From: Halobacteriales archaeon YIM A00010
GTDB lineage: Archaea; Halobacteriota; Halobacteria; Halobacteriales; Haloarculaceae
Assembly (NCBI GenBank): GCA_025041175.1
Contig: JAKCFJ010000001.1
Coordinates: 1,915,526 to 1,939,525, forward strand
DNA: 24,000 nucleotides
Reading direction: 5' to 3'
A program made the position numbers and the translations under genes. The notes beneath the pieces were generated by a model. That model had not been told where the DNA came from. It was given only the letters and a program-made list of their open reading frames with translations, and searched no databases. Shown here in pieces: positions 177-9,462 of this stretch (its first letter is position 1; the number at the start of each line of letters is the position of its first letter).

Positions 177-245
177 ACGAGATCTCCGGCTTCCGGTTTC
201 ATTCTCGTTCACTTTCCCGTTTCGATTCGTCGAGAGAAGATCGTC

Positions 246-452
246 ATACTGTCGGCCCTGCGGACGGAGTGCGACGGACCATCCATCTGCGGTCTAGCGA
301 TTCATCAGCATTCGATATATACCGTCGGTCATGGGCCTTGGAACACTCGGTTGCTTGTTCACCACGGGATCGACCGCGACTCACCCACCAAGCGATCGTA
401 GAGTATCAATGGATATGACCGACGGTATACAATCACCTCGGTCCGACAGTAT
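246..452. repeat. Hairpin-ended mini-element, outer copy (interrupted); homologous to 8863-8961
   Basis: ATACTGTCGG (246-255) is the reverse complement of CCGACAGTAT (443-452). By hand alignment, 246-318 matches 8863-8938 at about 78% and 430-455 matches 8940-8965 at 23/26. The two blocks are separated by the 318-429 insert. Confidence 0.8.
318..429. mobile_element. MITE-like element nested inside the 246-452 copy
   Basis: Perfect 15-bp terminal inverted repeat: TATACCGTCGGTCAT (318-332) and ATGACCGACGGTATA (415-429). The segment is absent from the otherwise homologous copy at 8863-8961. It has no coding capacity. Confidence 0.6.
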
Positions 453-455
453 CAC

Positions 456-1820
456 TCACCGGGGGTGGCTCTGTCCTTGGTCCGAGCGCGACGTGGTGAC
501 GTAGATGCTGTCTTTGTCGAGAATGAACTCGTCGATGAACGCGGCGATGAACACTGCGGTTTGGAACACGAGATACGGCCAGAGCGTGAACGCAGCGAGG
601 TATTCGAGCGGATGGTGGGTCTCTCCCTCTAGCCAGTCCTGAATGAAGATGAGATACGACACGATGATGGGGGTGATCGATATGAACGACCATACGACCC
701 AGCCGTTGGGAATGAGCGTCGCAGTCGAAACCCCGGTCAAACCGTTGAACAACGGCATCGGAAAGACGAGGACGAACAACACCGGAACGATCGCGTAGGC
801 GAAGGTGTACACAGCGTCGATCTTTTTCCGGATCGAGATCGCTCGCTCCTGGGGCAAGAGGGGAAGATACCGGACCGCCACCTGCATCCAACCTCGCGCC
901 CACCGCTTTCGCTGGTTCCACCACGCGGACAGCGTTGCGGGGTTCTCCTCGTAGGTGATGACCTGTGGATCGACGCGCAACTCCTTGCCGATCGAGTGGA
1001 TCTTCGAGGACATGTCGATGTCCTCGACGAGGATCTCCTCGTCGAACTCGCCGAGTTCCTCGAACACCTCTTTCCGGAAGAACGCCTGCCCACCACCGAA
1101 GATAGTGAACCCGTCCACCACCTCCCGAGCGAACAGGTCGCCCTTCTCGGCGATGTGGCGCTCGACGGTCGCGTGCAGCGCCAACAGCGAGTCCGTCGGG
1201 TTGTCGCCGTAACACCGCCCTTTCACACACCACGTGTCCTCATCAGCGAGGAACCACGCCACTGCGCGCCGGATCGCGTCCGGTTTGAACTGGTGGTCGG
1301 CGTCGATGCTCGCAATGATGTCACCCGTGGCGTGTTTCAGCGCGTAGTTCGTCGCCTTGGCTTTCCCACCGCCCGGTTCGTCGCGCTCGACAGCGACAAA
1401 CCGAGGATCGTCGGCAGCAGCCTGCTGTGCGATTTCGGCGGTTCGATCCGTCGAACTCGCCTCATAACAGAGCACGACTTCGAGCTTCTCCGCTGGATAG
1501 TCCACCCGCTTACAGGCCTCGATCGTCCCCGGTAACACCGGCTCCTCGTTGTACGCCGGTATCACCACCGACACGGTGGGAAGCGTCGTGTCGCCGATCG
1601 CTGGAGGATCCGTTCTCGAAAACGCAAGTACTGCGGACAGAAGCGTCCGTCCGACGAGCCCAACCAATCCGAGCAACAACACCGTGTTGAGCACACTCCC
1701 GTACCCCTTGACGTACGGGATCGGCAGTAAGATACCGACAACGAGTAACCCCGTTATCGTCGCATACGTCGTTATTTTCTTGAGAGATAACGACGTCTCT
1801 TCGACCGTCTTGACTTCCAT
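456..1820 (-). CDS. Family-2 glycosyltransferase, membrane-integrated processive synthase type
   Basis: 454-aa ORF. It has N-terminal TM helices, a GT-A core (VSVVIPAYNEE, SIDADHQF) and QRKRWARGW (the Q-x-x-R-W motif of NodC/cellulose/PNAG-type synthases), followed by several C-terminal TM helices. Confidence 0.9.
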   Translation of the reverse strand: MEVKTVEETSLSLKKITTYATITGLLVVGILLPIPYVKGYGSVLNTVLLLGLVGLVGRTLLSAVLAFSRTDPPAIGDTTLPTVSVVIPAYNEEPVLPGTIEACKRVDYPAEKLEVVLCYEASSTDRTAEIAQQAAADDPRFVAVERDEPGGGKAKATNYALKHATGDIIASIDADHQFKPDAIRRAVAWFLADEDTWCVKGRCYGDNPTDSLLALHATVERHIAEKGDLFAREVVDGFTIFGGGQAFFRKEVFEELGEFDEEILVEDIDMSSKIHSIGKELRVDPQVITYEENPATLSAWWNQRKRWARGWMQVAVRYLPLLPQERAISIRKKIDAVYTFAYAIVPVLFVLVFPMPLFNGLTGVSTATLIPNGWVVWSFISITPIIVSYLIFIQDWLEGETHHPLEYLAAFTLWPYLVFQTAVFIAAFIDEFILDKDSIYVTTSRSDQGQSHPR

Positions 1821-2313: not shown

Positions 2314-2457
2314 ATTCACTCTCGTCCCAGCATGGGATTAAACTTTACCAAGGAGAGTTTCCCGGATCACCGCATCCGCGGTGATTCATAGGGACTGTTG
2401 TGATTCCGTCCCGCTGTGGCGACACAGAACGGTTCGTGACACCACAGAGCAGTCGTC

Positions 2458-2566
2458 ATACTGTCGGTCATCCTTCCGTACACCGGCAGTGGACGCTTCG
2501 GGATCGTGGAGCACGCTGCTGGCTGAACCGGCGACCGAGTGGTCACAGACCGATGACCGACAGTAT
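2458..2566. repeat. Hairpin-ended mini-element copy (MITE-like)
   Basis: Perfect 15-bp inverted repeat: ATACTGTCGGTCATC (2458-2472) and GATGACCGACAGTAT (2552-2566). The left flank-plus-repeat 15-mer TCGTCATACTGTCGG (2453-2467) is identical to 241-255. Confidence 0.8.
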
Positions 2567-2626
2567 CAGTCTACGACCGTGCCGAACATACTCACAACAG
2601 TCCCTATCACCGGCTCGGCGGTTCGA

Positions 2627-8862: not shown

Positions 8863-8961
8863 ATACTGTCGGACAGATCCACGAACGGATTGCGACGGAA
8901 TATCCATCTGCTGTCTGGCGTTCACCAGCGTCTGATATTCAATCACCTCTGTCCGACAGTA
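8863..8961. repeat. Hairpin-ended mini-element, compact uninterrupted copy
   Basis: Perfect 13-bp inverted repeat: TACTGTCGGACAG (8864-8876) and CTGTCCGACAGTA (8949-8961). The interior is homologous to 246-318 plus 430-452. Confidence 0.8.
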
Positions 8962-8991
8962 ACAGTATGCGCGCGTCGCTACGAGAAGTGG

Positions 8992-9462
8992 ATGCCAGAC
9001 GTGGATATTCAGCGAGCGACCGGTGCCGATGCGAAAGCGCTCACAGCGGTGTACCGGAGCGCGTATCGGGAGAACCGCGAACTCGGATTTCCGGCCACAG
9101 CAGGATCAGTAACTCCCCCGACCGTCGCGGACTGGATTCGGGAGTGCCGGATCTACGCGGCCAGAACTGGTGGCGAGATCGTCGGCGGTGTACGACTCGA
9201 ACTGACGGAGAACGATCGCGCAAAGCTCAGCCGGTTTGGCGTTCACGAGGACTGCAAAGGAGAAGGGATCGGGAGTGAACTGCTCGATCACGCGGAGAAA
9301 CAGGCTCACGAACGCGGCTACGTGGTGATTTGGCTCACGACGCCCAAAAACCATCCGTATCTTCCCGGGTTCTATCGCCGTCGTGGATACGAAAAAACGG
9401 GAGACTACCCCCTAGAGAACCGCGAGTACGACGAAATTATTATGGAAAAGCAACTTCGATAG
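8992..9462 (+). CDS. GNAT-family N-acetyltransferase
   Basis: Start moved to the ATG at 8992 (MPDVDIQRATGADAKALTAVY...). Acetyl-CoA motif HEDCKGEGIGSELLDHAEKQAHERGY. The track's 5' extension overlaps coxA and runs through the repeat element. Confidence 0.85.
   Translation: MPDVDIQRATGADAKALTAVYRSAYRENRELGFPATAGSVTPPTVADWIRECRIYAARTGGEIVGGVRLELTENDRAKLSRFGVHEDCKGEGIGSELLDHAEKQAHERGYVVIWLTTPKNHPYLPGFYRRRGYEKTGDYPLENREYDEIIMEKQLR

Follow-up and report, generated by a model that had tools for sequence, protein, structure and literature searches.

Small mobile repeats (SMRs) were described in Haloquadratum walsbyi, where HqIRS41 measures 79-80 bp and HqIRS42, 43 and 55 around 103-122 bp, with prominent inverted terminal repeats, up to 54 copies and ends unlike those of any transposon in two curated genomes (PMC3119063). 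They were reported without target duplication and often inside other mobile elements, and their mobilisation was called 'enigmatic' (PMC3119063). Beyond this 2011 paper, we found in the literature no later work on SMRs, nor any haloarchaeal transposable element of the miniature inverted-repeat type (MITE) with a 3-bp duplication. Here we analyse a stretch of 24 000 nt from Halobacteriales archaeon YIM A00010 (contig JAKCFJ010000001.1, positions 1 915 526 to 1 939 525; hereafter the window), in which positions 246-452 consist of two transposable elements, both non-autonomous, non-coding and ended by inverted repeats, the inner element B lying inside the outer element A. Among the described classes, the Haloquadratum SMRs, i.e. 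MITE-type elements, are the best match.

Hairpin-ended repeats of this kind are also known from bacteria. The Correia elements of Neisseria are non-coding repeats of around 100-150 bp with a very short TA-type duplication, present in many copies beside genes and co-transcribed with them; we know of no cognate transposase for them and of no reported preference for stop codons or nesting. They differ from the present elements in being bacterial, unrelated in sequence and flanked by TA rather than TNA. REPINs are symmetric hairpin repeats of around 100 nt that persist across lineages and are mobilised in trans by a separate gene (RAYT); they depend on an HUH enzyme and leave no target duplication. 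Tourist MITEs are similar in size to the elements described here.

An earlier note on this DNA, made from the letters alone, had read the region as one repeat copy split by a second member of its family. The outer inverted repeat, ATACTGTCGG (246-255) and CCGACAGTAT (443-452), is exact, and the perfect 15-bp inverted repeat that edges 318-429 (TATACCGTCGGTCAT / ATGACCGACGGTATA) was confirmed. While these repeats are real, the units themselves run from TAC to GTA and begin one base inside the ends given there, so that A as a whole spans 247-451 with TCA at both sides and measures around 95 nt without B and one TA, and B is flanked by TA at 318-319 and 428-429 (Table 1). The resemblance of A to a compact copy further along the window, put at about 78 % with a 4-nt indel, was reproduced (79/101 positions, i.e. 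78 %, to 8863-8962). With the boundaries corrected and B plus one TA removed, A and this uninterrupted relative, element D, are identical at 79 of 99 positions (80 %) and show no gap at the junction (GATATACAATC vs GATATTCAATC). B folds as DNA at -22.5 kcal/mol (z = -3.3), and its ends match those of a further element, C. The idea that B had entered a member of its own family holds for the termini, of which around 10 nt are common to A and B, and fails for the interiors, which are unrelated (43 % identity). The same ATA/TAC...GTA/TA junction (slashes marking the boundaries of the inner element) is also present in a nested copy at another locus, L095.

Table 1. Coordinates of the nested elements, their target duplications and the adjacent gene in the window
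Feature	Positions	Strand	Sequence or ends	Basis and remarks
Left target-site duplication of A, 3 bp	244-246		TCA	Identical TCA at 452-454; register as in 75/108 family copies
Left part of A	247-319		Starts TACTGTCGG	Aligns to D; last bases TA (318-319) are the target of B
Inner element B, 108 nt	320-427		TACCGTCGGTCAT...ATGACCGACGGTA	Near full-length hairpin; 12/12 arm match
Second TA copy from B insertion	428-429		TA	Removal of 320-429 restores gapless fit to D
Right part of A	430-451		Ends CCGACAGTA	Inverted repeat and D alignment
Right target-site duplication of A	452-454		TCA	1 nt from the GT2 stop codon (456-458, minus strand)
Family-2 glycosyltransferase (GT2) gene	456-1820	minus		PF00535, 1.8e-29; stop at 456-458
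Left duplication of E	2386-2388		TCA	Same TCA at 2607-2609
Left part of E	2389-2458		Ends TAGGGACTGTTGTGA	z = -5.5 for E; TCA at 2456-2458 is the target of C
Element C, 107 nt, same family as B	2459-2565		12/12 arms	TCA/TCA; nested in E
Second TCA copy from C insertion	2566-2568		TCA	
Right part of E	2569-2606		Ends TCACAACAGTCCCTA	93 % identical to L110
Right duplication of E	2607-2609		TCA	L110 copy likewise has TCA on both sides
Element D, 98 nt, uninterrupted relative of A	8864-8961			Flanks decayed (GTA / ACA)

A second nested pair lies in the same window. Element C, known to the earlier note as a copy at 2458-2566, is itself nested in another hairpin-ended element, E, which had gone unseen there. 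E (2389-2606) is a 108-nt element with 16-bp ends (TAGGGACTGTTGTGA, 16/16) unrelated to those of C and with its own TCA duplication. A metagenome scan for E-type ends returned an uninterrupted E copy on a contig with 65 % GC (L110), which matches the window at 2385-2458 with 88 % and at 2566-2610 with 93 % identity, the two matches overlapping by exactly TCA, i.e. 3 nt. L110 is therefore direct proof of the insertion of C with a 3-bp duplication. The reverse history for the first pair, in which 318-429 would be ancestral and the compact copy at 8863-8961 would have arisen by deletion, is hardly credible: B is bounded by perfect 15-bp ends and TA flanks of its own, elements with B-type ends also occur independently (C and a cluster of seven members, see below), the fit of A to D is gapless after removal of B and one TA, and in the analogous case of C in E an uninterrupted E with a single TCA is found elsewhere. 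Insertion rather than loss of ancestral sequence, as originally proposed, is thus upheld.

Within the window, the sequence ATACYGTCGG occurs 11 times with at most one mismatch, against 3.8 expected, and none of 100 shuffles reaches 11. TA-ended inverted-repeat pairs of 74-125 nt are confined in the 24 kb to the elements described here; each of 20 shuffles has 0-1, and two syntenic relatives, scanned over 21 kb each, have none. The shuffles rule out chance inverted repeats. A known structured RNA family is likewise ruled out, as the whole window gave no Rfam match at gathering score. No transposase domain (Pfam) was found among the window ORFs (open reading frames) tested, in agreement with the earlier note.

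To define the wider family, we searched one genome per species for the exact pattern ATACYGTCGG-N70-100-CCGACRGTAT, allowing lengths of 90-120 nt. At least 100 loci match, so that the expected further copies do exist. Among the matches listed, to which the family counts given here refer, nearly all are from Halobacteria, with at least 12 named genera (Natrialba, Halococcus, Salinibaculum, Natronomonas, Halostella, Halorussus, Haloterrigena, Natronorubrum, Natronococcus, Natronolimnohabitans, Haloglomus and Haloquadratum) as well as many metagenome-assembled genomes (MAGs), and some contigs hold several copies. These 117 matches comprise 109 haloarchaeal copies and 8 from non-haloarchaeal contigs; 91 of the 117 are 109-111 nt long, with minor groups near 100 and 80. 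The family falls into subfamilies with unrelated interiors, the largest cluster having a median identity of 76 % and one cluster of seven members carrying B-type ends. Arms are complementary up to position 14-16 in the family and over 10-16 nt in the window.

The copies also define the ends and the target duplication. When the copies are lined up as ATAC...GTAT, the last two bases of the left flank together with the first A equal the last T together with the first two bases of the right flank, so that the mobile unit is TAC...GTA between direct T-N-A repeats. Read this way, a perfect TNA duplication is present in 75 of 108 copies (TCA 42, TGA 27, TAA 3, TTA 3), any other register giving 0-4 of 108 (binomial P against 1/64, ~1e-108). 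A 2-bp duplication (TA, twice TC) is seen in around ten others, among them every one of the seven copies of one subfamily. In the window, A, C and E have TCA/TCA, B has TA/TA and the flanks of D are decayed. The target, first described as TA-rich, is therefore more precisely T(N)A, with B itself at TA. Since the middle base of TNA varies between copies and yet matches within each copy, the triplet arises on insertion and does not travel with the element. Element and target orientation are independent (20 TCA vs 15 TGA in the largest cluster, 5:5 in another), as expected for symmetric ends acting on double-stranded DNA. The target logo shows a G after TCA at 54 of 75 sites, which prompted us to consider single-strand (IS200/IS605-like) insertion; the orientation independence rules this out, and the asymmetry arises because the third codon position before a TGA stop is rich in G/C.

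These duplications also bear on whether the copies are REPIN-like, i.e. symmetric hairpin repeats that a single-copy host HUH enzyme (RAYT or IS200-type) copies as single-stranded DNA. HUH single-strand transposition takes place next to a fixed motif and makes no duplication, and RAYTs are, to our knowledge, described in bacteria only, which counts against such an origin. The hairpin architecture and fixed size would suit it, as would the covariation of the arms, the distribution over the whole class rather than in patches, and the lack of an insertion sequence with matching ends, both around the copies and in Haloquadratum (PMC3119063). The elements may also tend to land in other palindromic elements, as in Haloquadratum (PMC3119063): besides those of the window, nested pairs with further end types were found, partly by eye, at L050, L095, L025, L009, L061 and L089, and another hairpin element surrounds 4 of 103 copies compared with 3 of 444 control positions (Fisher P = 0.026). 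Nevertheless, true 3-bp duplications whose middle base is variable between copies and matched within each make the mechanism unlikely, insertion is independent of orientation and no HUH or RAYT gene was seen next to any copy. We therefore consider a REPIN-like process improbable; membership in the REPINs as such is ruled out by the true duplication, again with no RAYT gene seen near the copies.

Evidence for insertion is also given by the relatives of YIM A00010. The best matches of the GT2 protein are 92 % (closest relative), 90 % (Halocatena pleomorpha) and 84 % (H. halophila) identical, and gene order around GT2 is conserved in all three, which places the window in a Halocatena-like haloarchaeon. 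The spacer between the GT2 stop and the next gene measures 58-101 nt in these relatives vs 278 nt in the window, and the spacer that carries E and C 45-127 nt vs 307 nt. No elements were found at the three sites in the three Halocatena relatives, D being missing from the equivalent spacer of H. pleomorpha; empty orthologous loci, which the earlier note had named as a check, are thus at hand. The reconstructed empty site, GAGTGACGAT, lines up with GAGTGGCGAT of the closest relative, and deletion in silico of A together with one TCA gives GAGTGACGATCTTCTC, which aligns with GAGTGGCGATTTCTC there. The conserved block upstream of the next gene (GAATCGAAACG...) is intact despite the composite. Multi-copy spread, target duplications and empty orthologous and paralogous sites together demonstrate that elements of the A-E type are mobile.

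As to their surroundings, the pair of E and C is located between the stop of a helix-turn-helix (HTH) gene (2627) and the conserved TATA-like block of a DUF7098 gene. The right end of D and its flank (CAGTAACAGTATG, 8958-8994) form the sole AT-rich stretch within the roughly 30 nt upstream of the probable start of a GNAT gene (ATG 8992), and H. pleomorpha has unrelated sequence at this position; D may perhaps have displaced or supplied the promoter of this gene. All five elements fall in the first 9 kb, leaving the other 15 kb of the window empty of them, which suggests that their accumulation is lineage-specific and locally clustered.

Many copies sit directly on stop codons. In 42 of 68 perfect-TNA copies (62 %), an ORF of 100 codons or more has the duplicated triplet as its TGA stop, compared with 17.6 % of random TCA/TGA sites, and for ORFs of at least 300 codons the figures are 26 % and 3.7 %. 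The 50 ORFs concerned match 48 different Pfam families, none of them a transposase; the genes are ordinary ones (DnaJ, eRF1, asparaginase and aldo-keto reductase, among others). When only TCA/TGA sites within 60 nt after the same stops are considered, 38 insertions fall on the stop vs 23 expected. Since a TGA that is duplicated on insertion restores the stop codon, much of this bias could come from selection alone. Element A in the window lies one base after the GT2 stop and not on it; the inverted repeat ends 3 nt from this stop codon, exactly as the earlier note had it. The A and B composite, folded as RNA, has a predicted energy of -85.8 kcal/mol (z = -2.7). In the glycosyltransferase mRNA it would give a strong hairpin at the 3' end, and any consequence for the transcript is conjecture.

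Considering this placement, the repeats could primarily be functional RNA or DNA hairpins, i.e. 3'-end stabilisers or terminators selected after stops, their repetition reflecting function. The strong fold of the composite, the excess of perfect-TNA copies on TGA stops, the ordinary and diverse nature of the genes concerned and the compensatory changes that keep the arms complementary would all agree with this. However, duplications, empty orthologous sites and nesting indicate that copies arise by insertion, their orientation relative to the gene is random, subfamily interiors are unrelated, no Rfam family matches and the same genes do without elements in three close relatives. A primary role of this kind is therefore unlikely, while secondary use of the elements by the host is possible.

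Taken together, we regard A, B and their relatives as nested, non-autonomous transposable elements mobilised in trans, at a probability of roughly three in four. Identical inverted ends, a fixed duplication with a variable middle base, orientation independence, lack of coding capacity and empty sites point to double-stranded transposition with staggered cuts by an enzyme acting in trans. Element A, the older of the two at around 95 nt, would have entered a TCA that follows the TGA stop of the glycosyltransferase gene by one base, duplicating TCA; B (108 nt; TAC(T/C)GTCGG termini in common with A) would have landed later at a TA inside A, duplicating TA. In each event, a transposase supplied in trans would bind both identical ends, excise or copy the unit and join it to cuts staggered by 3 nt at T-N-A (2 nt in one subfamily), and repair of the stagger would yield the duplication.

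The duplication gives a hint as to the enzyme. Members of the IS1031 group (IS5 family) insert at 5'-TNA-3' with an exclusive 3-bp repeat (PMC12016507), and PIF/Harbinger and relatives use TWA (Harbinger) or C/TNA/G (NuwaII, slashes again marking the boundaries) as targets, some of them, i.e. ISL2EU, making 2-bp duplications (PMC4482050). The present family thus shares the 3-bp TNA duplication with the IS1031 group and PIF/Harbinger (PMC12016507; PMC4482050), and its 2-bp subfamily resembles ISL2EU, which belongs to the same superfamily as Harbinger (PMC4482050). Unlike these systems, its ends start with TA instead of the quoted GA/GG-type ends and no transposase was found around the copies. 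Because the 3-bp TNA duplication is known for these groups, we infer an IS5/IS1031- or Harbinger-like DDE enzyme as the leading candidate, though only tentatively. An IS630 or Tc1-mariner (Stowaway-like) MITE with strict TA duplication is ruled out, since most copies duplicate TCA or TGA; for IS630-type elements in Haloquadratum, no duplication was recorded (PMC3119063).

Several observations weigh against the interpretation as trans-mobilised MITEs. As to the MITE label already given by the earlier note, the elements are small (95-108 nt in the window), non-coding and multi-copy, with inverted repeats and a fixed duplication, but no autonomous element with family ends was found in ~750 kb around the copies, so that in the strict sense they are putative MITEs. 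A search of 72 556 plasmids with a typical copy gave one weak 29-nt match with nothing informative nearby, and in two fully curated Haloquadratum genomes no transposon has ends matching the SMRs (PMC3119063). The one IS1031-group end compared, GAACCTGTCTAGTATCT (PMC12016507), is unlike TACTGTCGG, the family ends starting with TA. At the locus itself, the 2-bp duplication of B stands in an ATATAT context, which leaves the exact boundaries of B ambiguous by 1-2 bases. Arm positions 11-14 differ between subfamilies and yet are complementary in at least 94 % of the copies, with three pair types, and interiors are unrelated while a length of 110 +/- 1 and the outer 10 nt are common to many genera, although the conservation of these 10 nt is only partly informative because the search pattern fixed those bases. 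Fixed length and common ends are unusual for decaying MITEs, and together with the arm covariation the fixed length also fits a mechanism that reads the hairpin.

Other searches for a parent element gave the same picture. Family ends paired 130-3000 nt apart enclose only separate small copies or host genes (alcohol dehydrogenase, MobA-like) between two copies, and a generic inverted-repeat search at 600-2600 nt revealed no new autonomous candidate. In an all-vs-all comparison of 2421 ORFs from the loci, sensor kinases, ABC ATPases and pterin-binding enzymes recur and no transposase does. Solo ends at one mismatch are swamped by random matches in GC-rich DNA. In viral contigs, a 14-mer end matched 120 loci, none with a complete element, so that these matches are most likely due to chance.

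It is tempting to speculate that the family belongs to a Halobacteria-wide superfamily of TA-ended hairpins of fixed length (~80 or ~110 nt) with several unrelated ends (TACTGTCGG; TAGGGACTGTTGTGA / TACGGACTACTGT; TAGCGATTACTGCGA; TAATGACGGTTGTAG) and without a parent insertion sequence. These would be moved by an unrecognised, possibly chromosomal, T-N-A-cutting enzyme, preferentially into one another and into TGA stops, whose duplication would restore the stop codon and keep the gene whole. At present we consider this proposal possible and rather doubtful.

Further TA-ended hairpin families of around 80 or 108 nt were seen at L009:1233-1313, L061:5270-5351, L089:1123-1230, L025:5585-5802 and 3690-, and L110:2953-3068. 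Their ends, TACGGACTACTGTA, TAATGACGGTTGTAG and TAG(C/T)GATTA(C/T)TGCGA, loosely have TA-NN-GAY-NNN-TGY in common, and they are often nested in, or hosts of, elements with TACTGTCGG ends. In two Halococcus species, the same site is occupied by an element (L004:4904-5005 and L041:4301-4393) between identical flanks (GGAACG / AAGTCCCCGCCG); the two agree in their 10-nt termini, have unrelated interiors and measure 102 vs 93 nt. This pair recalls the 'switch repeats' of Haloquadratum, and a long minus-strand ORF runs into the element.

At L009:5281-6472 and L036:5653-6643, single host genes (for a zinc alcohol dehydrogenase and a MobA-like nucleotidyltransferase) lie between inverted family ends ~1-1.2 kb apart, the inverted symmetry continuing into the flanks at L036; each might represent two decayed copies or a composite arrangement. 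Elements of 107-109 nt with a common 17-bp end, ATACTGTCGGCGAATTC, and no clear duplication are present in contigs binned as a proteobacterium and as Deinococcus (GC ~0.6; L044:2069-2177 and L047:4319-4425), so that the family extends to bacteria or the binning is wrong. L088:3076-3153 consists of three tandem 29-nt units (GACGCCGGTACAAGTATGGCCCGACAGTC) with the family core CCGACAGT, beside complete elements. A pterin-binding (dihydropteroate synthase-like) gene is found in four loci of different genera (L061, L066, L069 and L099), the element of L061 abutting the gene end, which may be due to chance or to an old insertion that they share.

Returning to the SMRs, the present family resembles them in its halobacterial hosts, its size classes of ~80 and ~110 bp, its inverted terminal repeats, its multiple copies and a length too short for a transposase, as well as in its orphan status, no transposon with matching ends having been found around the copies, and perhaps in its landing inside mobile elements or palindromes. 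Copies with TACTGTCGG ends are even present in contigs of Haloquadratum MAGs (L050 and L061). This likeness rests on the published descriptions, as no HqIRS sequences are given there (PMC3119063). In contrast to the SMRs as described, the present family shows a 3-bp TNA or a 2-bp duplication; as the A and T at its edges look like bases of the repeat itself, a duplication is easily overlooked, and the published statement that there is none may have missed it. In addition, SMR-A is reported mainly inside PATEs and IS605-type elements, whereas the present copies are mostly at ordinary gene stop codons.

While the nested pair in the window looks neutral and nested MITEs are already known, a family spread across many genera with a clean TNA or 2-bp duplication and placement at stop codons makes the question of SMR mobilisation testable. 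In particular, the duplication points towards a DDE enzyme with a 3-nt stagger and provides a precise signature by which to search for an autonomous partner or a host transposase. For genome annotation, hairpins that abut TGA codons are easily mistaken for terminators or small RNAs; the placement at stop codons also bears on the biology of 3' ends in haloarchaea.

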